Part shown: piece after piece, positions 7,156 to 18,629 of the stretch
Layout of the letters: every line of letters starts with the position of its first letter
Position numbering within the stretch: position 1 is the first letter of the stretch
Assembly: GCA_016706595.1 (NCBI GenBank)
Contig: JADJJH010000007.1
Location: 140,856-204,855 of the forward strand
Reading direction: 5' to 3'
Length of the DNA: 64,000 nt
Origin: Bacteroidota bacterium
GTDB taxonomy: Bacteria > Bacteroidota > Bacteroidia > Chitinophagales > Chitinophagaceae
The notes under the pieces: generated by a model
Database searches by the model: none
What the model was told of the DNA's origin: nothing
Seen by the model: the letters and a program-made list of their open reading frames with translations, nothing else
Translations under genes and position numbers: made by a program

Positions 7156-10112
7156 GTGGTTACACGGAAAAAAACTTAGAAGAACATATTGAGAGAAGCT
7201 TACACGAAGTAGGTTACAAATCTCTTCTTCATACTGAGTATGATAGAGTGAATTGTATTGTTCAATCTGACCTCATTGAATTCATCAAAGACACTCAGAA
7301 AGATGTATATGATAAACTGGTAGAACAATATGGTCCCGAAACAGACACCAAACTCATTTTAAGACTGACCAATGAGATTTCAGGACGTGGGGTGATAGAT
7401 TGTCTAAGAAAGGGAATAAAAGACCGTGGCTGTCATTTTTCATTAGTTTATTTTGAACCCAAAAGCGGACTGAATCCTGAACATCAGGAACTCTATCAAA
7501 AGAACCGATTCACAGCCATCAGACAACTTCATTATTCTTCAAAAAATAATAACTCATTGGACATGGCTCTTTTCATAAATGGAATATTTATTGTAACCAT
7601 GGAGTTGAAAAATCAATTGACAGGGCAAACCATTATTGATAGTGAAAAACAATACCGATATGACAGAGACCCGAATGAACCTCTCTTTCAATTCAAAAGA
7701 GTGATAGTTCATTTTTGTTGTGATAATGACAAGGTTTCAATGACGACACGATTAATGGGAGGGAAGACAAAATTTCTTCCATATAACAAAGGGATAATCA
7801 ATCCGATTAATCTTACAGGATTAAAAACATCATATCTCTGGAAGGAGATATTGACAAAAGAAAGTATGTTGGATATACTTGAAAACTTTGTTCATGTTTC
7901 CATTGAGACTGATAAAGATTTTGACCCGAAACTGGGTAAGGTTATTGAGAAGAAAAAAGAACTTTTAGTTTTCCCTCGTTATCATCAGTTAGATGTAATC
8001 AGAAAACTCAGAACATCAGTGAGAACTGAAGGCGTTGGAAATAACTATCTGATTCAACATACAACAGGGTCCGGAAAAAGTTATTCAATTGGATGGTTAT
8101 CACATTTGCTGACCTCAATTTACAGAACCAAGGATGATAACAACCGAATGTTCGACAGTATCATAGTGATTACAGACCGTAAAGTTTTAGATAGGCAATT
8201 ACAAAACACTATCAAGCAACTGGAACAAACAACCGGGGTTGTGAATCCCGTTGATGAAAACTCATCTCAGTTAAAAAAACATTTAGAAAGTGGTAAGGAT
8301 ATCATCATTACGACCATTCAAAAATTCCCCCGTATTTCTGAAACAATTTCTCAATTACAAAGTAAAACATTTGGAATTATTATTGATGAAGTTCATTCTT
8401 CTCAAAGTGGTGAAGGGGCAAAACATTTGAAACAGTCACTTTCAAAAGGTGTGGAATATGATTATGAAGAGAATGAAGAGATTAGTGATATAGATGATTT
8501 CATTAGAGAAGAAATAAGAAGTAGAGGCAAACAAAAACATATTTCCTTTTTTGGGTTCAGTGGGACACCCAAAAATAAAACTTTGGAATTATTTGGTAGA
8601 AAAGATGATGAAGGACACTTTATTCCGTTTCATACATACACAATGAAGCAAAGTATTACTGAAGGTTTTACATTGGATGTATTAGAGACTTATACGACCT
8701 ATCAACAATGGTTTAAACTGAATAAGCGAGTAGAAGAAGATAAGGAGTTACCGAAGATGAAAGTAATGAAGCGGTTGATAAATTTTGTTGACGACCAGTC
8801 TCATACTATCACTCAGAAAGTAAAAATCATTTTAGACCATTTTATAAATCACACTTCAAAGAAATTGGGCGGTAAAGGAAGAGGAATGATTGTTGTTCGG
8901 TCCCGGCTTCATTGTGTGAGGTATAAAATGGAAATGGATAAACAAATGAAAGAGTTGGGACTTCCATATAGTAGTTTGGTTGCATTCAGTGGAAGTGTAT
9001 TTGATTTTGACACCTCAAATGAATACACTGAAAATTCGATGAATAAACTCTCACAAGGAGTTTCAATTCCTGATAGTTTCAAGGACCCGAAATATAGGCT
9101 TCTGATAGTTTCAAATAAATTTCAAACTGGGTATGATGAACCTTTACTTCATTCAATGTATGTAGATAAAACTCTGAGAGGATTACAATGTGTTCAAACT
9201 CTAAGTAGGTTAAACAGAACGACCACCGGAAAGACTGACACTTTTGTTTTGGATTTTGTAAATACCAGTGATGAAATTTTTGAAAGCTTTCAACCATACT
9301 ATCAAAAAACTATTCTGACAGGAGAAACCGACCCGAATAGACTTTATACAATTGAAACCGACATAAAGAAATTCAATCTATTCACCGAATATGAGATACA
9401 AGAATTTTGTGATGTCTTTTATGATAAGAACCAAGCGCAGGAACTTCTTCAACCAATATTGAATAGAGTGGTCCATAATTGGAGTCGAATTGAAGATGAA
9501 AATGAAAGGGAAAACTTTCGTTCTCTGATTCAATCCTATCTCAGACTATACGGATATATTTCACAGATAGTAACCTTTGAAGATATTGACTTAGAAAAAC
9601 TTTATGTTTTTCTAAGATACTTAAACAAGAAATTGCCAAGGAGAGAGAAAGAGAATATTGAAGACATTACTTCCTTAGTGGATTTAGATAGTTTCAGATT
9701 GGAAGAAACATTTAAAGGAAAAATTGCACTGGAAGAAAAAGACGGGGAATTTGAACCTCTTGGAAGTGGAGTCTCAAAAGTATTTGTTGAAGATGAACTT
9801 GATTCACTTACTCAAATTATTCTTAGAATAAATGAAATTTATGGTGACCAAATAACCGATGAAGACAAACTGGATTTAGAGAATATGAAGAAGAGAGTAA
9901 TGACAAACGAAGAACTTCAAAAAGTGATGACTGGTGATAACTCAGAAACCAATAAGCGACATAAATTTGAAGAAGTGATGACTACAATTCTTTTAAGTTA
10001 TGTAAATAACAGACTGGACTTTTATAATAAAATGGATGACCCGAAAATAAAGAACTTCATTGGTGATATTCTTTACTCAGAATTAAAAAATCAAAATCAA
10101 ATAAACCCTTAA
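7152..10112 (+). CDS. hsdR: Type I restriction endonuclease subunit HsdR
   Basis: 986 aa. N-terminal PD-(D/E)XK motif (DMALFINGIFIVTMELKN), SF2 helicase motif I (QHTTGSGKS) and motif II (IIIDEVHSSQ), and later helicase motifs (FQTGYDEP). Confidence 0.92.
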   Translation: MSGYTEKNLEEHIERSLHEVGYKSLLHTEYDRVNCIVQSDLIEFIKDTQKDVYDKLVEQYGPETDTKLILRLTNEISGRGVIDCLRKGIKDRGCHFSLVYFEPKSGLNPEHQELYQKNRFTAIRQLHYSSKNNNSLDMALFINGIFIVTMELKNQLTGQTIIDSEKQYRYDRDPNEPLFQFKRVIVHFCCDNDKVSMTTRLMGGKTKFLPYNKGIINPINLTGLKTSYLWKEILTKESMLDILENFVHVSIETDKDFDPKLGKVIEKKKELLVFPRYHQLDVIRKLRTSVRTEGVGNNYLIQHTTGSGKSYSIGWLSHLLTSIYRTKDDNNRMFDSIIVITDRKVLDRQLQNTIKQLEQTTGVVNPVDENSSQLKKHLESGKDIIITTIQKFPRISETISQLQSKTFGIIIDEVHSSQSGEGAKHLKQSLSKGVEYDYEENEEISDIDDFIREEIRSRGKQKHISFFGFSGTPKNKTLELFGRKDDEGHFIPFHTYTMKQSITEGFTLDVLETYTTYQQWFKLNKRVEEDKELPKMKVMKRLINFVDDQSHTITQKVKIILDHFINHTSKKLGGKGRGMIVVRSRLHCVRYKMEMDKQMKELGLPYSSLVAFSGSVFDFDTSNEYTENSMNKLSQGVSIPDSFKDPKYRLLIVSNKFQTGYDEPLLHSMYVDKTLRGLQCVQTLSRLNRTTTGKTDTFVLDFVNTSDEIFESFQPYYQKTILTGETDPNRLYTIETDIKKFNLFTEYEIQEFCDVFYDKNQAQELLQPILNRVVHNWSRIEDENERENFRSLIQSYLRLYGYISQIVTFEDIDLEKLYVFLRYLNKKLPRREKENIEDITSLVDLDSFRLEETFKGKIALEEKDGEFEPLGSGVSKVFVEDELDSLTQIILRINEIYGDQITDEDKLDLENMKKRVMTNEELQKVMTGDNSETNKRHKFEEVMTTILLSYVNNRLDFYNKMDDPKIKNFIGDILYSELKNQNQINP

Positions 10113-10122
10113 AATAAAAATC

Positions 10123-10647
10123 ATGGCAACAGAAAATACAACATGGAAAGAAAAATCAACTTGGGATAAATCAAAAGAGATACTTGGTATAATTGGCAAT
10201 TTGGCTTTTATCACAATGTTAATATTGAATTTGATAGCTTTAAAGAATCTTATGAAATCCAATAACTACAATAATGAAGTTGTTGGGAATTGTATGACTA
10301 AATATTCAAAAATCGCTTCAAATATCAGAGCGTATAATAATCATAAGGATTCTACAATTGACATAGTGAATACTATGTATGACTATTTCGACTTGACTAA
10401 TGAAGAATTATTTTACATCAGAAACGGTGTTGTTAATCCTGAAGTTAGTGGTGATTGGATAACTGGGATGATAAAGCAAATTAAGATTTTCAAAGAGGAT
10501 AAAAATTATAACACAGTAATTGAAAATTATCCTCGAATAAAGAAAACATTTCTTATTGAATGGTCAGAAATAAAACCTGATATGATAAGCAAGCAGGTAA
10601 TTCAAAATTGTATGAGAAATCTTAATGAATATAATTTGAATCAATAA
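10123..10647 (+). CDS. Hypothetical single-pass membrane protein (174 aa)
   Basis: Starts 10 nt after the hsdR stop. One clear TM helix (ILGIIGNLAFITMLILNLIAL). No recognisable catalytic motif. Confidence 0.5.
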   Translation: MATENTTWKEKSTWDKSKEILGIIGNLAFITMLILNLIALKNLMKSNNYNNEVVGNCMTKYSKIASNIRAYNNHKDSTIDIVNTMYDYFDLTNEELFYIRNGVVNPEVSGDWITGMIKQIKIFKEDKNYNTVIENYPRIKKTFLIEWSEIKPDMISKQVIQNCMRNLNEYNLNQ

Positions 10648-10668
10648 TAAAAATTATTTTGAATATAA

Positions 10669-11271
10669 ATGGAAGTCTATCATCAGTTTCATAATACAAA
10701 CAAATTTTATCCAACTTGGGAGGTGGATTATATCTTTTTGGGAACATTCAATCCAGTTTGTGGAGAGCAGTTAGATTATTATTATAGGCGAAAGAGTAAT
10801 GGATTTTGGAATATTTTAAAGGCTTATTTTGATCCCAATAATGAGTATAATATATTAACCTATATAGAACTTGAATCTTTTGTGAAGGCTAAGAAGATAG
10901 GTTGTATTGATGTCATAAAAAAGGTGACGTTCCCAGATGATATGAGAGACAAGATATGTGGTAAAGGTTATTCCGACCAAACACTTTTCACAGTGACTAA
11001 CTTTAAAAGAGAATACACCTTTGAAGAAATTAAAGAGTTTCTTATTAAAAGAAAAGTAGAAAAGGTTTTTTCAACATGGGGTAAAAGGGATAGCCCAAGT
11101 GAGTTTTTGAATGAAGTAAATAATTTTGTTACCTTTTGTGATGAAAATTCAATTTGCTTCACCCCTCTTCCTTCACCAAGTGGGAGATGTTACCGAGGAG
11201 TAAATATTCCTATTATTACCAATGAGTGGGGCAACAGGATTACAAATGATTTTTGTAAAAAACCACTCTAA
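10669..11271 (+). CDS. UDG-superfamily DNA glycosylase-like protein (MUG/TDG- or hypoxanthine-DNA-glycosylase-like)
   Basis: 200 aa. Motif 1 with Asn reads IFLGTFNPV (compare GINPG of MUG/TDG). It is followed by YYY....NGFWNIL (compare the HP.N.FW pattern). The C-terminal motif 2 reads PLPSPSGRC (compare LPNPSGLS). Assignment is by motif pattern only. Confidence 0.55.
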   Translation: MEVYHQFHNTNKFYPTWEVDYIFLGTFNPVCGEQLDYYYRRKSNGFWNILKAYFDPNNEYNILTYIELESFVKAKKIGCIDVIKKVTFPDDMRDKICGKGYSDQTLFTVTNFKREYTFEEIKEFLIKRKVEKVFSTWGKRDSPSEFLNEVNNFVTFCDENSICFTPLPSPSGRCYRGVNIPIITNEWGNRITNDFCKKPL

Positions 11272-11316
11272 ATACATCAAAAAACCAAAATTGAAATTAT
11301 CCTAAAAATAAAGAAT

Positions 11317-11637
11317 ATGAACCCAATTGAAATTGTCCAATTTCTAAAAAACAATTCTCTAACATTTTGGAATCTACTGAGTGAAATAGATGATGAAATA
11401 GTTTCTTCAATGAGTGAAAATGATAAGGATATTATGGAAAGAATTGGCGAGGTAGAAGAAGTTGAATCATCATTGGTGAATGGAGAAATAATAGTTCATT
11501 TCAAAAATTATGACTTTTATATTAAGGAAGATGAATTTGATGACGGGAATGGAGAGGACCCTTTTTATAAATATAGTTTAGTACATCAGACAGGTGAAAA
11601 GGTAATTCCTATTTTTGGAGTACAACAGAAATTGTAA
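11317..11637 (+). CDS. Small acidic protein (106 aa), paralogue of 12961..13308
   Basis: Rich in D/E. Shares ordered blocks with the 115-aa ORF: P.E/D-I/L..F...TFW/Y; RIGEVEEVE vs KIGEYKTLEE; IIVHFKNYDFYIKE vs TIIHFETLGFYIEE; VIPIFGVQQKL vs KIVFGNHQKL. Confidence 0.5.
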   Translation: MNPIEIVQFLKNNSLTFWNLLSEIDDEIVSSMSENDKDIMERIGEVEEVESSLVNGEIIVHFKNYDFYIKEDEFDDGNGEDPFYKYSLVHQTGEKVIPIFGVQQKL

Positions 11638-11658
11638 TAATCAAACACGGCAATAAGA

Positions 11659-12390
11659 GTGAACTTGCTTAAAATTGGAACAATCAATATTGACTGGCTA
11701 AGAAGGAAAAACAAAATTCTACAGATGCTTATTGATGAAATCAACAGGCAAGAATTCGATTTTTTAATAGTTACTGAGAATGTTGCCTCATTCCAGTTCA
11801 ATGAAAAATATTTTGTATCCAACACAATCCCCATTCCTGTAGACACGGAATTTCAACATTTAGACTATGGTAGTTATTTGAAAGGTGAAACGCCAATAAG
11901 ATGCTCCATTTTTAGTAAATATGAACCAATTGAAATACTCTCTGTAATAGACTCTTATACTTGTATCGCCAGAAAGTATTTAGTTGAAAATATAGAGCTA
12001 ATTATTTACGCCTCTATTATTGGGACCTATGGCATAAGCCATCAAATGGAAATTGCCAAGCCAGAACTTTGCAATTTCAAAACTGATATTGCAAACATAT
12101 TAATTCAAAATAAAAATTTAATTATTGCAGGAGATTTAAACACATCATTTTTTACCGAGGAGAGAAAACAGTTGACACAAATTCAAAGCAGATTCGAATT
12201 AATAAATTTTACAAACAAATACCACATCAACCGAGCTACAGAAAAAATGAAAGATTGCATTGATCATATCTTTTTTTCGGAGAAATTAAATGAGGGCGCA
12301 ATCCTTAGCACAGACACATTTTTCTCGAACAATCAACTAAAAGATGAACCACATAAAGGAATTATTGTAACCATAAATAATTACATTTGA
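11659..12390 (+). CDS. Endonuclease/exonuclease/phosphatase (EEP; ExoIII/DNase I-like) family protein
   Basis: 243 aa with a GTG start in the track. EEP motifs appear in order: KIGTINIDW, DFLIVTEN (catalytic Glu), IIAGDLNTSF (GDxN) and CIDHIFFS (IDHI). Confidence 0.65.
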   Translation: MNLLKIGTINIDWLRRKNKILQMLIDEINRQEFDFLIVTENVASFQFNEKYFVSNTIPIPVDTEFQHLDYGSYLKGETPIRCSIFSKYEPIEILSVIDSYTCIARKYLVENIELIIYASIIGTYGISHQMEIAKPELCNFKTDIANILIQNKNLIIAGDLNTSFFTEERKQLTQIQSRFELINFTNKYHINRATEKMKDCIDHIFFSEKLNEGAILSTDTFFSNNQLKDEPHKGIIVTINNYI

Positions 12391-12393
12391 TGT

Positions 12394-12885
12394 ATGGAGA
12401 GGTATCAAAAAATATTAGATGAAATAATTATTTCAGTAAAAGATTTCAATTTGTATTTAAAAGAGGACAATCAAATTGAATTGCCTTTTGAAAATTTACT
12501 AAATAACCCTTACTATTATTTAGAACTTAAAAACATTCCCTTTAAAGGTTTCCAAATTCCCAGGGCTTGCGAGTATGGAGGCGTTTATTTTTATTTCGGG
12601 TTCAATAAAAATGATATTTCCGAATTACATATTTATGTCGGAAAGGCTTCTCAAAATAGTACTATGGGGAAAAGGTTATATTCACATTTCTACCAAAGAT
12701 TTTCACAAACAAATTTTGAGGGGCATAATTATTATTTTAACAATGATATTCTAATTGAAGGAATGTTATTATTACCAATTGAAAATAATGAACATAAATT
12801 TCTTGCACCGTCAATGGAAGAATTTATTATCACCGACATGAAAGAGAAAAATTATTTACTGATAAATAAAGTGGGTAATTCTTAA
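12394..12885 (+). CDS. GIY-YIG-like nuclease domain protein
   Basis: 163 aa, starting 3 nt after the EEP stop. Reads GGVYFYFG-x10-HIYVGKAS...GKRLYSH (GIY...YIG...R), with a later acidic SMEEFII and NKVGN. The pattern is consistent with a GIY-YIG core. Motif-level call only. Confidence 0.5.
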   Translation: MERYQKILDEIIISVKDFNLYLKEDNQIELPFENLLNNPYYYLELKNIPFKGFQIPRACEYGGVYFYFGFNKNDISELHIYVGKASQNSTMGKRLYSHFYQRFSQTNFEGHNYYFNNDILIEGMLLLPIENNEHKFLAPSMEEFIITDMKEKNYLLINKVGNS

Positions 12886-12960
12886 AAGAGGTCTTCGTAA
12901 AAGGGAATCAAAAACAACAATAAAGGACTTGTAAGAAAAGAGTATTCTAATTTTAAAAAA

Positions 12961-13308
12961 ATGAAAACACCACAGGATTTAATGAATTTTATGACAAAGT
13001 ATAAATATACTTTTTATGATTTTGAAAATGATATTGACTGGAAATTAGAAGAAAGCGGAGATGTTGATACTGAAGGGAATGAATTATATCATAAAATTGG
13101 AGAGTATAAGACTTTAGAAGAGTATGAATTAAATGAGGTGCATGGTTGTTCAATAAAGCATACAATAATTCATTTTGAAACATTAGGATTTTATATTGAA
13201 GAACGACTCCATATAGAAAATGAAGATGTTCAAAAAAAGGAATATTTTATAGTTGAGCCAGTACAAAAGATTGTTTTCGGAAATCATCAGAAATTGAGTG
13301 TCAATTAA
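12961..13308 (+). CDS. Small acidic protein (115 aa), paralogue of 11317..11637
   Basis: See 11317..11637: same block order, roughly 30% identity by eye. Confidence 0.5.
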   Translation: MKTPQDLMNFMTKYKYTFYDFENDIDWKLEESGDVDTEGNELYHKIGEYKTLEEYELNEVHGCSIKHTIIHFETLGFYIEERLHIENEDVQKKEYFIVEPVQKIVFGNHQKLSVN

Positions 13309-13392
13309 ATGCTTGTGTCTCAGAGTGTCTATCACAGGGTCTTTGTCAGGTTATTGAATGAAGAATTCTCCATCTATGGAAGTATCATTAAG

Positions 13393-13589
13393 TTAGAATA
13401 AGGCTCTGACTACATTCTAAAAAAACTTAAAAAATATTTTTTGATTTCATTGACTTTGAATATTTCCAAATTTGTTTTTAAAGTCTTCTGATTTATATTT
13501 GTATAACAAAAGAGATAAGAGTTCAGATGACACCGAACCACCTTATTCTAAAGAAATTAGAAAGGTCAGAGTTAAATAGGTTAGAATAA
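13393..13589. promoter_or_regulatory. Cluster of four TTAGAAT half-sites forming two palindromes plus an 11-bp inverted repeat pair
   Basis: TTAGAATAAGG at 13393-13403 and its exact reverse complement CCTTATTCTAA at 13541-13551 lie 137 bp apart. ATTCTAA at 13414-13420 pairs with the first copy. TTAGAATAA at 13581-13589 pairs with 13543-13551. Confidence 0.5.
13471..13501 (+). promoter_or_regulatory. Bacteroidota-type promoter (TTTG -33 / TAnnTTTG -7)
   Basis: TTTG at 13471-13474, a 19-nt spacer, then TATATTTG at 13494-13501. It points toward the 13767 ORF. The region is AT-rich, so a chance occurrence is possible. Confidence 0.35.
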
Positions 13590-13766
13590 AATCGCCTATT
13601 CACTATCTCAAAAAGATAGTTGTCAATTATCAATAATTATATTGTTTCAGGTTATTTCTGAAATCCATGTTTGACTTTAAATCGAATTCTGATTTTATCA
13701 GTGGTAAGAATTATGGAGCAAACTGAATATTTGATGAATTATGTAATACACTAAAAATTAAAATAT

Positions 13767-14057
13767 ATGAACGAACAATTAGAAAAATTTATTGATTTCT
13801 TGGCGAAATTATCGGATGACGAACTAAGTAAGCTTATGTATATAATTTCCCGGTCAGGGCGGTTAATAATTCCAAACTATTATTTTAAAGACCACGTAGA
13901 AGAATTTGTAGAAGATAAAATTTCTATTCAAGAAATGTGTTGGATTCAAAAAAGTATTGAAAATTATGATTACTATTTTGATAGCGACATTATACAACTA
14001 CATACAGAATATAAGCCGCAAAGAAGAGCGGATATACTCGAAGACTTAAGGTTATAG
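13767..14057 (+). CDS. Hypothetical small acidic protein (96 aa)
   Basis: ATG ORF in a co-directional series. No recognisable motif. Confidence 0.4.
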   Translation: MNEQLEKFIDFLAKLSDDELSKLMYIISRSGRLIIPNYYFKDHVEEFVEDKISIQEMCWIQKSIENYDYYFDSDIIQLHTEYKPQRRADILEDLRL

Positions 14058-14098
14058 CAGAAAGGACAAAGTATTATTAAAAAATAAAATAAATAACT

Positions 14099-14593
14099 AT
14101 GAGAAAAACACGATTGAGCCCTTTTTATCAGGGACCAGAATGGTTGAATGGAACATCTTCTATCAACCTATTAAAAAACAGGATTGGGAAATCTGTCAAT
14201 GGATTTCAAACCTTAAAAACAGGAGTCATTTCAACTAAAAGAGCAACCCGTTATAACGGAGTTTCTTTGAAACTACAAGTAGTGAATGACCTTGTTTATT
14301 TGAAGGTTGGGAAATCACTTTCAGATCCATACTGGAAGATTGATAACATTGTTAAGATGTTATCATTCAAGAACGCTTCAAAGACGATTCTTAAACAGGA
14401 TGTTAGAAAGTGGATTGAGGATGGAAAACTGGTTGTCAGTTTTAATGTTCTCAAAAAAGACCACGGAACGAAGTGGAAATTAATTGACAAGGACACTTTA
14501 TTCAAATCCGCAGAACTCAAACCAAGGGTTAAGTGGGAAAGAACCAAAAAGGAGGTTCTTTTGGATGAGGACGATTTCTTTAGTGACCTGTAA
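14099..14593 (+). CDS. Hypothetical basic protein (164 aa)
   Basis: ATG ORF, K/R-rich, followed by a strong terminator hairpin. Confidence 0.45.
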   Translation: MRKTRLSPFYQGPEWLNGTSSINLLKNRIGKSVNGFQTLKTGVISTKRATRYNGVSLKLQVVNDLVYLKVGKSLSDPYWKIDNIVKMLSFKNASKTILKQDVRKWIEDGKLVVSFNVLKKDHGTKWKLIDKDTLFKSAELKPRVKWERTKKEVLLDEDDFFSDL

Positions 14594-14602
14594 TCAGGCA
14601 TT

Positions 14603-14636
14603 ATTAGCCTCTGAATTTATCAGGGGCTAATTTTTC
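14603..14636 (+). terminator. Rho-independent terminator
   Basis: 12-bp stem (ATTAGCCTCTGA / TCAGGGGCTAAT, one G:U pair), 5-nt loop, then TTTTT. Confidence 0.6.
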
Positions 14637-14740
14637 TTAAAAAGTGTATCATTTCAAAAATGTATCAAAATAATTAGGAAAACATTAGGTTGATACACGA
14701 TTTAATGTATCTTTGTAATGTAAAAGATTAAAACGATACA

Positions 14741-14995
14741 ATGAAAGACTATTTAAGACGATTATTAGATGAAAAGGGAATATCACAGGATTATGTATTC
14801 ACACTTGATACGAATGATTACTGGGGGCATCATATCATTCCCATAGAAGTTCTGATCGAGTTTATAGATAATATGAACCCACAAACTCAGACACAGATAA
14901 AACAGAAATTAGTGGTCATTGATTTTAAGAATGGTGATATTCTTCACTTTTTAGAATTCATCACCCGTAAAATGATAGAAGTTCAAGTCAATTAA
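14741..14995 (+). CDS. Hypothetical protein (84 aa)
   Basis: ATG ORF ending 10 nt before the recombinase start. No recognisable motif. Confidence 0.4.
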   Translation: MKDYLRRLLDEKGISQDYVFTLDTNDYWGHHIIPIEVLIEFIDNMNPQTQTQIKQKLVVIDFKNGDILHFLEFITRKMIEVQVN

Positions 14996-15005
14996 AATAC
15001 ACATT

Positions 15006-15631
15006 ATGAAAGTTGTAATTTTTCCCGCGTGTCCACTATGTCGCAAGACTATCAAAGACAAACAGTAGAATTAAAAGAATATTCTCAGAAGATGGGTTTT
15101 GAAGTTGTCAAAACCTTTGAAGAAAAGATTTCAGGCGGTAAGAACAATGAAGACCGACCAAAATTGATGGAAATGATAAATTTCATCAAGTCAAATCAGA
15201 TTGACAAAGTTCTATGTTGGGAATTAAGCAGAATTGGAAGGAATACTATTGAGGTTCTGAAAACAATCAAGCTTCTGAATGATAATTGTATATCACTATT
15301 CATCAAGAACTACAACATAGAGACCTTGAATGATAAATGTGAGATAAACCCCTTATCTCAGTTTATGATTCAAATTTTGACCTCTGTAAGTGAGATGGAG
15401 AAGACAACTATCAGACAGAGGGTAAAGTCGGGTTATGATAATTTCAGAAAGAACGGTGGCAAGGTTGGAAGAAAAGAAGGATTCAGAAAAGACGATGAAA
15501 CTATACTTAATGAAAACAAGGATGTTTCAAAACTTCTAAAACAAGGCTACTCAGTAAGAAAGGTTATGAAATTGACCGATAAAAGTAGTGGGACCATTCA
15601 GAAAGTAAAGAAATTAATCAATGACAAATAA
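15006..15631 (+). CDS. Small serine recombinase (resolvase/invertase family); first 7 codons are out of frame
   Basis: Contains RVSTMSQDYQRQ (catalytic Ser motif), ISGG...DRPKL, ELSRIGRN, and a C-terminal HTH (GYSVRKVMKLTDKSSGTIQKVKK). ATG at 15006 encodes MKVVIF in another frame. One extra T in the T5 run 15019-15023 would give MKVVIFSRVSTMSQ. The track ORF is 15029..15631 (GTG). Confidence 0.8.
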
Positions 15632-16021
15632 GAAAATGACAATTACTATTCAACATCAAGCAGAAAAGACCTTTCACACTTTCAAAGTAAAAGATTCGGA
15701 TAACCTTACTTACTTAGAGGTAAGAACTATCTGTAATAAAATGAATTTCATTGGGCTTCTCGTGAATGGGAAATATTATAAATTTAAATAAGCTGAATTA
15801 TGGACTTAAAAACGAAATACGATACTAAGAGCAAGGAGATTGAACAAAAACTCTCAAAAATGAAAGTAATAAACAAGAAGCACAAACAACACTTTGAGAA
15901 GAACTCCACTAACTGGTGATCCTTGATGGAAGTTCATTCAAATTAATACTTTTTTGATTTGCCATCAAAAACCAAAGTTGAATAAAATAATATTATTACC
16001 TTCATAATAAAATCTAACCCC

Positions 16022-16474
16022 ATGAAACAATTATTGACATTGATCTTTATATTTACTTTAATCTCAGTTATATTTATAAAATGCAAAAAGAATGAATCTG
16101 GGAATAAGAGTTATTCAAACCTTACTGGAACTTATCAAGGCAGTTTGATTTGGTCTAAAGGATTATTACAAGGAACTGACAACAATGCAAAAGTTACAAT
16201 TTCTTCAGGAATCAATGGTAGTATAAATGTCAATATATCTACTTCAGCTTCAGTTCCTAAAAGTTATGATATACCTCTTATGCTAAAAATTGAAAATTCT
16301 GGAAGTAGAGTCCGGTCGTATGGTTATGAATACAATAATTCAACTTTTACCAAAGGAATTGGTGCTACAATAAATATTTACAATGATGGTAATCCCTCAG
16401 ACCTTGAAATAAATTATGAGGACATTGATATTAATCCAATTGTACAGTATAATTTTTCCGGAAGTATTAAATGA
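16022..16474 (+). CDS. Putative lipoprotein (150 aa)
   Basis: Signal peptide with a Cys after the hydrophobic core (LISVIFIKC). S/N/G-rich mature part. Confidence 0.5.
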   Translation: MKQLLTLIFIFTLISVIFIKCKKNESGNKSYSNLTGTYQGSLIWSKGLLQGTDNNAKVTISSGINGSINVNISTSASVPKSYDIPLMLKIENSGSRVRSYGYEYNNSTFTKGIGATINIYNDGNPSDLEINYEDIDINPIVQYNFSGSIK

Positions 16475-16526
16475 AGAACAATATGAAGAAATTCTAAAAT
16501 ATTTGTGTACGTTAAAGTAACTTCCG

Positions 16527-16583
16527 GACCTAATCTATTTAGAAGACAAACTGGATGAAATGATAAATTTCACGGGGATGTAA
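16527..16583 (+). repeat. Gene 3'-end remnant, copy 1 (DLIYLEDKLDEMINFTGM*)
   Basis: 57 nt, homologous to 18412-18468. An in-frame stop lies just upstream (16518-16520), so no intact gene is attached. Confidence 0.7.
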
Positions 16584-17009
16584 TTAAGTAAGAATTCGTT
16601 TCATAAATACAGAAACATCACCATAAACCCCATTTATAATTGAAAAAATTGAATGACTTACGTCAAACTCCTTTCCCAATTTACTTGTCCAAATACCATT
16701 TAATAATTGCCTAGCAGCGTGAGTAGGAGCCCCATTTTTTGAAAAAATTGCAATTTTTTCATATCCTTCTTCTAGTTCTCCATTTTCACATACTTCATAA
16801 TTTATAGTACTAAAAAGCTGAATAAAATTTTCAACTTTTTCAGATCTCGGAATATGTTCCGGCCAATAGTACGAATTACTGCTATCAGGCCAAAACCATT
16901 TTGAGTCGTCACCATAAGCCCATGCAATACAATTATAGAACGGAGTAGGCGGACTTGTAATAATGAATGGTTCTTTTGCAGAGTTGGGGAAAATATTATG
17001 AAAATGCAT
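16584..17009 (-). CDS. Hypothetical protein with papain-like Cys/His signature (141 aa)
   Basis: FYNCIAWAY (Cys in an N-C-x-x-W context, as in CHAP/NlpC-type folds) and a later GAPTHAARQLLNGIWTSKLG (His). Last gene of a tightly packed three-gene unit. Confidence 0.45.
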   Translation of the reverse strand: MHFHNIFPNSAKEPFIITSPPTPFYNCIAWAYGDDSKWFWPDSSNSYYWPEHIPRSEKVENFIQLFSTINYEVCENGELEEGYEKIAIFSKNGAPTHAARQLLNGIWTSKLGKEFDVSHSIFSIINGVYGDVSVFMKRILT

Positions 17010-17015
17010 TCTTCA

Positions 17016-17444
17016 TTATTTCAGATTATCATTTGCCCATTCAAGCCAATCAGCTTTCATTAATTTGAAATCTCCTCGATGGTCAGGCTTAATGGGATTC
17101 TTACCAGTAAGCGCTTCAAGGGCATAAAACCAGTGTGAATCAGATTTTTCTAAATCCTGAAGAATAAATGGCAACACATCTTGACCTAAATGGACAATTG
17201 AACGGTAAGCACCATTATTTGTTATTTCTGAAACACTAGATGAGAACATAGTTTCAGATTGCCAAATGCTTTTGTATATTTCAAATTTCTTCTTCACTTG
17301 GTATTTGAACATTTCCTTTATAAAAATACTTTGACCGATAAAGGAATGCCGACTTTCTTCATTGTTTCTTTGTACAAAAATTGCTTCAGTTGAAACAGCA
17401 TTTGTTCTTAAATTTTCTTGAACTCTTGGGAATAAGTAATTCAT
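17016..17444 (-). CDS. Hypothetical protein (~142 aa)
   Basis: The likely start is the ATG at 17444, which overlaps the upstream stop (ATGA). Ends 6 nt before the next ATG. No recognisable motif. Confidence 0.45.
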   Translation of the reverse strand: MNYLFPRVQENLRTNAVSTEAIFVQRNNEESRHSFIGQSIFIKEMFKYQVKKKFEIYKSIWQSETMFSSSVSEITNNGAYRSIVHLGQDVLPFILQDLEKSDSHWFYALEALTGKNPIKPDHRGDFKLMKADWLEWANDNLK

Positions 17445-18172
17445 TTTAAAAATAAATCTTTTGTTTTTTGAGTGATACAACTTTCGAAAATTTTATCTTT
17501 TGTAGTTCTAATTTCATTAAAATTAGAAGTTATTTCATCAATTGTAGAACCAATGTTGGTGTTTTGTGATACATCAATATCAAGAATGAATGGAATTTTC
17601 GAATCTTGAATCGGTTCAATTGCTTCAGAAATTACCGCATTCTGTCCATTCTCATCACATGGGACTTGAATTTGCATAAAGAATGTAGAATAAATTTGAG
17701 GGAGACAAGATGGAATCGGGGGCATAATAGTTATATAATCTTGGAAACTAGTTAAAGTGATTGGAAGTTCAATTCTATTAATAAAACGTGCCGCAATCCT
17801 GTTAGCCGTTGAAGGAGCAAATAAGTCCTTATAATGAGACCACAATTTCATAAAAAATGTAAAATGTTCTTCCCAACTGTTATAAGGTTTTAAAATATTT
17901 AATGTTAGCCCTTCAAATCCAACTTGAATTTGTCTAGAGGCATCATCACTCGAATAGATATGTCCCAAGACATCACTTGTCCCTTTACTTGCGACTTCTT
18001 TGTCGGGTTGAAATTCAAACAGCCCAGTAAATCTATGTTGTGTTTTCTGATTAGGAAACTCCCCAATTATCAACTCTTTAAACGCATTCAATTCTTCTAT
18101 CTGAGTAACAGCTAACGGCTCAACTCTGATATCGAATACTGCTTCGCGAATGGGATTGTTCGTGTAGTTCAT
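17441..18172 (-). CDS. TIGR04255-like uncharacterised protein (~243 aa)
   Basis: The N-terminus MNYTNNPIREAVFDIRVEP matches, from memory, the characteristic start of the TIGR04255 family. The track start at 18190 is TTG; the ATG at 18172 is preferred. Confidence 0.45.
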   Translation of the reverse strand: MNYTNNPIREAVFDIRVEPLAVTQIEELNAFKELIIGEFPNQKTQHRFTGLFEFQPDKEVASKGTSDVLGHIYSSDDASRQIQVGFEGLTLNILKPYNSWEEHFTFFMKLWSHYKDLFAPSTANRIAARFINRIELPITLTSFQDYITIMPPIPSCLPQIYSTFFMQIQVPCDENGQNAVISEAIEPIQDSKIPFILDIDVSQNTNIGSTIDEITSNFNEIRTTKDKIFESCITQKTKDLFLK

Positions 18173-18411
18173 TATTTTTAAAAAGGGCAAGAAAAGTATA
18201 ACCTTATTATGTTGTCCTTGGACAAATCTACATAAAGTTTTTAATCTTCATAATTTCAATGGATTGAAAAGGTTTTATTTCACATTCAATCCTTCAGTAA
18301 AGGCAATATTTAAAAGAATTTAAAATCACCTTTATATATGATAGAATAGAAATAATTTCAAAAAACATACAGTACTTAGATAGAACTCTATTTATTATCG
18401 GTTATCTAGTA

Positions 18412-18468
18412 GATTTCATCAACTTGGAAAACAAACTGGACGAAATGATAAATTTTACCGGGATGTAG
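18412..18468 (+). repeat. Gene 3'-end remnant, copy 2 (DFINLENKLDEMINFTGM*)
   Basis: Over the last 42 nt there are 5 mismatches to copy 1. Three are silent third-position changes, one swaps the stop codon (TAA/TAG) and one causes the D/N replacement. Open upstream only to 18301, with no ATG. Confidence 0.7.
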
Positions 18469-18556
18469 TAAAATGTTTCACACATTTGTTTTACACCCTA
18501 CAAAGAAAAAGACTCGCAATTCATTGATAATCAATGTTTTGCGAGTCTTTTATCTG

Positions 18557-18629
18557 TGGTGTGGGAGGGAATTGAACCCCCGACACAAGGATTTTCAGTC
18601 CTTTGCTCTACCAACTGAGCTACCGCACC
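18557..18629 (-). tRNA. tRNA-Phe (anticodon GAA)
   Basis: The reverse complement folds as a cloverleaf: GGTGCGG-TA-GCTC-AGTTGGTA-GAGC-A-AAGGA-CTGAAAA-TCCTT-GTGTC-GGGGG-TTCAATT-CCCTC-CCACACC-A. 73 nt, CCA not encoded. One C5:A68 mismatch in the acceptor stem. Confidence 0.85.

Follow-up and report, generated by a model that had tools for sequence, protein, structure and literature searches.

The open reading frame at 10669-11271 of the window (the whole 64,000-nucleotide stretch of Bacteroidota DNA analysed here) encodes a protein of 200 residues, for which sequence and predicted structure together support a UDG fold and a place in the UDG superfamily. Its clade, named here after its GTFNP motif, is unannotated, stands apart both from the models of the six canonical families and from Brig1, and has a motif signature of its own. 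The gene is a presence/absence polymorphism between kept flanks, which either a gain or a loss could have produced, and it lies in the tail of a type I R-M operon; a restriction or mobile neighbourhood is recurrent in the clade. By analogy, the protein could serve in defence as a glycosylase that works alone and removes a non-canonical base, possibly a purine, a reading that we tentatively favour while stopping short of calling it probable.

The gene and its conserved motifs

The frame, taken from the list of open reading frames and their translations, is open on the plus strand from an ATG start (product P0001). The GC content of the gene itself is 32.3%, and the predicted pI of the protein is 7.5, not strongly basic. 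Close relatives are few, with only 17 clusters of 43-66% identity found among 5.8 billion. When 1.84 billion proteins were searched with a profile built from them, 286 representative clusters matched at E <= 1e-3, and 115 full-length members, 20-66% identical, make up the alignment (A2) on which the following counts of conservation are based.

10669 to 11271, plus strand: predicted UDG-superfamily ORF of the GTFNP clade, 200 aa (translation, homologues, AF2 model, Foldseek)
10681 to 10683, plus strand: His5, in an H-x-F motif near the N-terminus, present in 113 of 115 members
10741 to 10755, plus strand: motif 1, G-T-F-N-P, residues 25-29, with N28 in 107 of 115 members
10777 to 10809, plus strand: Y-Y-Y-R-R-K-S-N-G-F-W, residues 37-47, with Y39, R41 and N44 at least 90% conserved and W47 invariant
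10909 to 10977, plus strand: Asp81 to Asp103, D81 in 113 and D103 in 114 of 115 members
11167 to 11187, plus strand: motif 2, L-P-S-P-S-G-R, residues 167-173, with S169, P170, S171, G172 and R173 invariant in close homologues

The positions conserved in at least 90% of the alignment are H5, L22, G25, F27, N28, P29, Y39, R41, N44, D81, I83, D103, T136 and P170, and W47 is invariant throughout (n = 115). The original prediction had named GTFNP, YYY...NGFW and LPSPSG as an ordered signature, and all three lie where it placed them; they go beyond chance because they are conserved over 115 homologues down to 20% identity. Within motif 2, [ST]-P-[SA] is kept across the wide family of the 115-sequence alignment. 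Between D81 and D103 sits a clade-specific insertion of about 10-12 residues, F-P-D…I-C-G-x-G-Y, in which I96, C97, G98 and G100 are invariant among close homologues. The AF2 model places GTFNP after the strand of residues 21-25 and LPSPSG after the strand of residues 163-166, as befits motifs 1 and 2 of the superfamily. Neither the family 1 motif-2 His nor the family 1 motif-1 Asp is present, and the conserved polar positions H5, N28, N44, D81 and D103 constitute the candidate catalytic residues. Asn28 is replaced by H, S, K, L or I in 8 of the 115 members and therefore may not be essential.

Fold and family placement

Searches with the single sequence are largely silent. Pfam (at E <= 0.1), PADLOC and PHROGs returned no match for the protein; PF03167 (UDG) did not match it and gave weak matches in just 4 of its 115 relatives, phmmer against the PDB yielded only noise such as RNase III, and BFVD yielded no structural relative from viruses. 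NCBIfam gave one weak match, to TIGR04274 (19.4 bits, E 8.8e-4, against an equivalog cut-off of 80 bits). The same model is matched by 81 of the 115 members, the best at E 4.6e-10 and still under the cut-off. With the A2 profile, hmmsearch matched PDB entry 2L3F at E 7e-9, placing a gap opposite N28; the entry is labelled only 'uncharacterized protein' in the search output, and we take it to be a family 6-type protein of Methanosarcina.

The AF2 model predicted from the 115-sequence alignment has a pLDDT of 96.3 and a pTM of 0.92, and its structural matches agree with the α/β fold around a four-stranded parallel β-sheet that UDG families have in common. Foldseek against the PDB placed E. coli MUG first (1mtl_B, E 5e-4, TMt 0.59; also 1mug and 1mtl_A), followed by human TDG (3uob) and Geobacter SMUG1 (5h93); the MUG entries were the sole matches at E <= 1e-3, and an earlier, shallower model gave identical top matches. 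TM-scores to the solved UDGs lie between 0.45 and 0.6, so distant is the protein from every solved member. The Foldseek matches to MUG, TDG and SMUG1, the profile match to 2L3F and the spread of TIGR04274 over the clade all bear out the superfamily assignment that had been made from the letters, and its 'family 2/6' label is a fair description of a protein that is nearest to MUG by structure and to family 6 by sequence.

Less settled is the assertion that an Asn occupies the MUG/TDG catalytic position. In an hhalign alignment, N28-P29 falls opposite the catalytic N18-P19 of MUG (probability 29%, E 5.8e-4, in a single comparison that covers motif 1 only), whereas MAFFT moves the pairing by one residue. 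The pairing thus has one alignment on its side and one a residue off, and judged from sequence the equivalence of Asn28 to the MUG/TDG catalytic Asn is plausible. A FastTree phylogeny of A2 together with 33 matches from Bacteroidota genomes separates 28 HDG-like Bacteroidota sequences from the GTFNP clade with a support of 0.97, and the clade does not group with the HDG-like proteins.

Likeness to known glycosylases

By sequence, the nearest relative is family 6, represented by TIGR04274 and PDB 2L3F. The nearest characterised relatives, those of family 6, are hypoxanthine-DNA glycosylases (HDG; PMC8438529), for example the Methanosarcina barkeri enzyme (TIGR04274). Shared with HDG-like proteins are H-x-F, L-x-L-G-[ST]-F, YY…N-x-F-W, I-[AG]-x-x-D (with D81), the S-x-D-x-N-L or S-x-D-x-x-L block (with D103), F-T-S (with T136) and L-x-S-P-S. 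An equivalent of His5 occurs in 9 of the 12 HDG-like Bacteroidota proteins seen at full length (5 aligned by MAFFT, the others judged from unaligned N-termini). In contrast to these proteins, the GTFNP clade has an additional Asn in motif 1 (GTFNP versus G[ST]FP) and the insertion holding I-C-G-x-G-Y. It is also rare and cassette-like where HDG is widespread, and the protein itself falls under the equivalog cut-off and within the separate clade.

With family 2 (MUG/TDG), the protein shares an Asn-Pro in motif 1, which in MUG reads GINPG, the N-x-F-W start of a helix and a motif 2 of the form L-P-x-P-S-G that lacks the catalytic His, the L-P-N-P-S-G-L-S of MUG aligning with it. The YY…N-x-F-W block is thus common to HDG-like proteins and to MUG, in which it reads NRFW. 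However, identity to MUG and TDG is just 11-13%; compared with MUG, one more residue separates the conserved Gly from the Asn, an N-terminal β-strand carries a conserved His, and two conserved Asp residues appear that MUG is missing.

Brig1, Brig2 and Brig3 are UDG-superfamily glycosylases that defend against phages with modified bases (PMC11078745; bioRxiv 10.1101/2025.10.29.685425; 10.64898/2026.02.25.707755). They offer a proposed functional analogy, in which a phage-specific modified base is cut out and an abasic site is left behind. Like the present protein, they are small members of the same superfamily whose genes lie in defence islands or mobile regions; Brig1 works as a single gene. 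A Brig1-type kinship had been suggested, and at the sequence level it falls away: compared with the Brig1 sequence from the supplement of PMC11078745, the protein gave no detectable homology (hhalign probability 0.2%). Family 4 UDG (4ZBY) is named as the close structural homologue of Brig1 (PMC11078745), whereas the relatives of the present protein are families 6 and 2.

The host locus and its neighbours

Positions 1-18555 of the window form an island of 31.3% GC, compared with 37.7% in the rest of the window and 36.1% in the genome, which agrees with the AT-rich setting originally described; the island ends at a tRNA-Phe gene (18556-18629). The gene has the same direction as the type I R-M operon in whose tail it lies, among the following features.

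5785 to 10112, plus strand: type I R-M genes hsdS (5785-7155) and hsdR (7152-10112), with Pfam, NCBIfam and PADLOC matches
10123 to 10647, plus strand: 174-aa ORF, left flank, with 76% aa identity in the UDG-less contigs L075-L078
10659 to 11287, no strand: extent of the single-gene cassette, present here and missing in L075-L078, from segment comparison with L075
11317 to 11637, plus strand: acidic 106-aa ORF (pI 4.2), right flank, with an 89% aa-identical copy in L075-L078
11659 to 12885, plus strand: EEP-family ORF (11659-12390) and 163-aa partner (12394-12885), a separate two-gene module

Spacing is tight, with 10 nt between hsdR and the 174-aa ORF and 21 nt between the latter and the UDG-like gene, downstream of which no plus-strand terminator-like site occurs before 14603. 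The hsdM gene is interrupted by an IS110-family element; with no intact hsdM, the island may therefore be decaying. The gene had been described as lying between a restriction subunit and nucleases, which is accurate for hsdR upstream (with the 174-aa ORF between) and for the EEP ORF downstream, whose homologues carry PF03372 and which itself has no PDB match by phmmer. The second supposed nuclease, the 163-aa ORF, has no Pfam or PDB support for a GIY-YIG nature and resembles that family in the appearance of its motifs. A paralogue of the 106-aa ORF follows the next enzyme pair in the window.

Outside the window, the EEP and 163-aa pair is kept without a UDG-like gene in contigs L071 and L072 (73% and 47% aa identity), and L073 has an EEP homologue close to hsdR, again with no UDG-like gene. 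The niche shared by the UDG-like and EEP genes may be the R-M operon itself.

Rarity and cassette behaviour

The clearest view of the gene as a cassette comes from Logan contigs L075-L078, which hold the 3' end of hsdR, the 174-aa ORF and, directly after it, the 106-aa ORF, without the UDG-like gene. L075 23-2028 corresponds to window 8653-10658 at 92.7% nt identity, and L075 2048-2406 to window 11288-11646 at 87.5%. The gap between the two matched segments is 19 bp in L075 versus about 630 bp in the window, where it holds exactly ORF 10669-11271; no flanking repeats were seen around the cassette.

The distribution of the gene is patchy on every scale sampled. Matches at E < 1e-30 occur in 4 of 401 sampled Bacteroidota genomes, about 1%, the source genome included, and only 6 loci were found with the narrow alignment among 185,579 species genomes. 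The A2 profile was searched against 61 genomes, 27 of them beyond the genus or at family or order level; among the 34 other genomes of the genus it matches in 6, and two of the copies are split by frameshifts. By tblastn, no UDG-like gene was found in 50,697 phage records nor in 72,556 plasmid records, and the gene is therefore not evidently phage- or plasmid-borne. Another contig of the same genome encodes a canonical family 1 UNG, with GQDPYH and HPSPLS motifs and 337 bits to NF003589. This separate UNG, the patchy distribution and the absence from a near-identical locus uphold the view that the protein is not a housekeeping enzyme.

Neighbourhoods of other clade members

When neighbours were clustered across 14, and later about 19, UDG-like loci, no conserved partner gene common to the clade emerged. 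Neighbours differ between subclades (a PAD_porph gene, a coiled-coil protein or a Fib_succ_major protein), a distant subclade pairs its UDG-like gene with an agmatine-deiminase-like enzyme, and close homologues are followed by unrelated genes or by none. The acidic 106-aa ORF has no homologue beside any other UDG-like homologue examined. Since each of the two genes is found without the other, the functional link once suggested between them is contradicted.

Restriction systems nevertheless recur as hosts. In L063, from a different Bacteroidota family of the same class, a member about 30% identical lies on one strand in the order hsdM-hsdS-orf-orf-UDG-like-orf-GmrSD-GmrSD-hsdR-YgjP-EEP, the only repeat of the UDG-like and EEP co-occurrence among about 15-20 other loci, a number that varies with the treatment of near-duplicates. 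A second, distant paralogue of a more HDG-like kind is found in the genome of the window at L025 9695-10414 and matches A2 with an hhalign probability of 97.5%; it overlaps a GmrSD gene at the latter's 3' end and lies ahead of type III mod and res. These two loci extend, independently, the restriction setting noted at the outset. Mobility and defence genes are common elsewhere: a DNA methylase, integrase and resolvase near the member in L001, tyrosine integrases within a few kb in L005, L009, L022 and L023/L024, and adjoining TA modules in L003 and L010. Housekeeping genes, for instance those of tRNA synthetases, HSP70 and ribosomal proteins, surround several other UDG-like loci.

Two members are fusions. 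In P0020 the UDG-like domain is joined to a sacsin-like GHKL ATPase. In P0154, whose gene is followed by one for REase-ARP/PDDEXK_13, it is joined to a C-terminal region with motifs that resemble GIY-YIG. This region has no significant similarity to the 163-aa ORF of the window (E 0.12), and a 'Rosetta stone' link between the two was rejected on that value.

Proposed function and alternative explanations

Here we infer catalytic activity, substrate and antiviral role by analogy. The protein would be a monofunctional DNA glycosylase from a rare, uncharacterised clade of the superfamily, possibly the sister group of family 6 in which the Asn-Pro pair of motif 1 was regained. Its gene would travel by itself in a cassette of about 0.6 kb, which here would have inserted among the co-transcribed genes at the end of a type I R-M operon, within an AT-rich island beside tRNA-Phe. 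The enzyme would scan DNA, flip out a base that is absent from host DNA and hydrolyse its N-glycosidic bond, and the abasic sites so made could block replication of the invader or be cut by host AP endonucleases. The target would most likely be a phage-type modified base, and possibly a modified purine because the nearest characterised relatives excise hypoxanthine; descent from a hypoxanthine-specific family would have provided a purine-sized pocket.

Several observations sit uneasily with a defence role. The protein matches no PADLOC model and has no sequence similarity to Brig1. The contexts of the clade are heterogeneous, with some loci amid housekeeping genes. Asn28 is swapped in the 8 members noted above, two congener copies are frameshifted, the pI is 7.5 and hsdM is broken by IS110 at this locus.

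The same family ties could also describe an accessory repair glycosylase carried on mobile elements, with no phage role, that removes hypoxanthine, xanthine or uracil arising, for example, from deaminase toxins or stress damage. Its nearest characterised sequence relatives are the family 6 hypoxanthine-DNA glycosylases (PMC8438529), H5, D81, D103 and T136 are common to HDG-like proteins frequent in Bacteroidota, and some loci do lie amid housekeeping genes. However, the clade is set apart from the HDG-like proteins by its own motif 1 and by an insertion near the presumed pocket, the gene is very rare, patchy and cassette-like, it turns up repeatedly inside R-M and GmrSD operons, and the genome already has both UNG and an HDG-like paralogue. 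We consider this alternative unlikely. The superfamily fold might also serve no glycosylase at all, the protein being catalytically inactive, a lesion binder, or an enzyme acting on a substrate other than DNA. TM-scores of just 0.45-0.6 to solved UDGs and the absence of both family 1 residues leave room for this, as does the other chemistry that the agmatine-deiminase-like pairing in the distant subclade would allow. MUG and TDG are active without the family 1 catalytic residues, and H5, N28, N44, D81 and D103 occupy loops and strand ends, as active-site residues of UDGs typically do, which argues against this reading and makes it quite unlikely.

The locus itself invites two further accounts in which the glycosylase would not act alone. 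It could belong to a multi-gene system in the hsdR tail, making abasic sites that the EEP protein, as an AP-endonuclease-like enzyme, and the 163-aa nuclease would break, while the small acidic proteins would serve as inhibitors. In favour of this, the ORFs share one direction and follow each other closely, no terminator-like site occurs before 14603, ExoIII/APE1-type AP endonucleases have the EEP fold, L063 combines a GTFNP member with an EEP of the family found in the window at a second type I R-M locus, and P0154 is a fusion with GIY-YIG-like motifs. Against this, the UDG-like gene is missing between kept flanks in L075-L078, L071 and L072 have the EEP and 163-aa pair but not this gene, L073 likewise has an EEP homologue near hsdR without it, and besides L063 no EEP, 163-aa or acidic homologue was found at about 15-20 other UDG-like loci. 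The P0154 C-terminus, moreover, does not significantly match the 163-aa ORF. Such a system appears distinctly improbable. A toxin of a TA or abortive-infection pair, in which host DNA would be the target of the glycosylase and the 106-aa acidic protein would restrain it as a Ugi-like DNA mimic, is still more improbable. Acidic DNA mimics that inhibit UDGs are known, and a small acidic ORF (pI 4.2) does follow the gene, with a paralogue after the next enzyme pair. However, its 89%-identical copy occupies the same place in relatives that have no glycosylase, it is missing beside all other glycosylase homologues, and the close homologues have unrelated or no downstream genes. Adjacency of the two genes is therefore not conserved, and their distribution largely refutes the pair.

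The stand-alone defence glycosylase could be taken one step further, to the clade as a whole. GTFNP proteins would then be a further, independently evolved set of single-gene antiviral glycosylases, descended from the purine-specific family 6 branch rather than from the family 4-like Brig1 branch. Their target would be a modified purine, with 7-deazaguanine derivatives as one example, and their gene would spread in the form of a 0.6-kb cassette without a promoter, entering the tails or interiors of R-M operons. This extension is possible and, at present, doubtful.

Significance

A UDG-superfamily defence glycosylase is a known kind of system, and the GTFNP clade itself is unannotated. Glycosylases that attack phage-specific bases (Brig1-3, Dag1/2) constitute a newly recognised arm of bacterial immunity, and every new glycosylase lineage so far has brought a new base specificity together with a potential tool for mapping modified bases. 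The protein is a cheap and well-defined candidate for testing because a high-confidence model, candidate catalytic residues and a natural pair of loci with and without the gene are all at hand. Moreover, the locus illustrates how the tails of type I R-M operons gather independent single-gene cassettes. Should the protein turn out to do no more than accessory repair, a new subfamily of the UDG superfamily would nonetheless have been defined.

Type I restriction-modification context

The hsdM gene of the type I restriction-modification (R-M) system in the window is present in two pieces spanning 1847-4891, between which lie the two ORFs of an IS110-family transposase, and a working methylase is probably missing from this system.

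Features of the window hsdM region
1847-3040, hsdM first piece, residues ~4-401
3090-3518 and 3524-3913, minus strand, IS110-family transposase, two ORFs
4430-4891, hsdM second piece, residues ~563-660

A type I R-M operon from another Bacteroidota family (locus L063, 789-15193) holds, in its hsdS-hsdR interval, one gene of the GTFNP clade to which the window UDG-like gene belongs, along with two GmrSD-like genes; hsdR is followed by genes for a YgjP-like peptidase and for an EEP that shares its family with window 11659-12390. The genome containing the window also possesses another defence cluster (L025 7842-14882; contig C2, ~1115800-1122900), where, downstream of RmuC, the 3' end of GmrSD (N and C domains) is overlapped by an HDG-like UDG paralogue of 239 aa, after which come type III mod and res.

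Downstream module, acidic ORFs and island end

The EEP ORF and the 163-aa ORF constitute a two-gene module that is conserved in other metagenomic contigs, with 73% and 47% amino acid identity.

Sites of the EEP and 163-aa module
window 11659-12885
L071 6001-7221; adjacent: HATPase_c_3 protein, ResIII helicase
L072 2026-3246

In a further locus, L073, the EEP neighbourhood comprises hsdR, HATPase and DUF4325. The window additionally carries two small acidic ORFs, which are weak paralogues of each other (28% identity, E 2e-6).

Small acidic ORFs of the window
11317-11637, pI 4.2, 106 aa; one close homologue cluster only in a 5.8-billion-cluster database
12961-13308, pI 4.8

When L075 2406-2873, from a Logan contig devoid of the UDG-like gene, was compared with window 11647-18558, just ~380 bp (a 92-aa ORF) followed the 106-aa ORF before a 77% match to window 18472-18558, the stretch adjoining tRNA-Phe. 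Given so short an interval, ~6.8 kb of the island, consisting of the EEP, the 163-aa ORF, the second acidic ORF, a resolvase and the DUF7689 cassette, seems to be absent or replaced in L075.

Domain fusions and the distant subclade

The UDG-like domain is found in two fusion proteins.

Fusions of the UDG-like domain
L027 8001-10907, P0020, 968 aa, N-terminal sacsin/Hsp90-like GHKL ATPase; two co-directional unknown genes lie 3'
L028 26-1168, P0154, 380 aa, GIY-YIG-looking motifs in the C-terminal region; a REase-ARP/PDDEXK_13 gene follows

In a distant subclade, which includes congeners of the source genome, a PAD_porph (agmatine-deiminase-like) gene stands downstream of the UDG-like gene.

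UDG-like/PAD_porph sites
L022 10231-11076, the two genes overlapping
L023 8287-9063
L024 8400-9266
L026 8817-9677

Two congeneric genes of this subclade, at L024 and L026 (G031:C1:685079-685731 and G002:C10:256093-256628), are each broken over two reading frames; probably both are pseudogenes that arose by frameshift. By analogy with Brig3-BapA, and purely as speculation, the PAD_porph product might be a candidate base-modifying helper for an amidino- or guanidino-bearing base.
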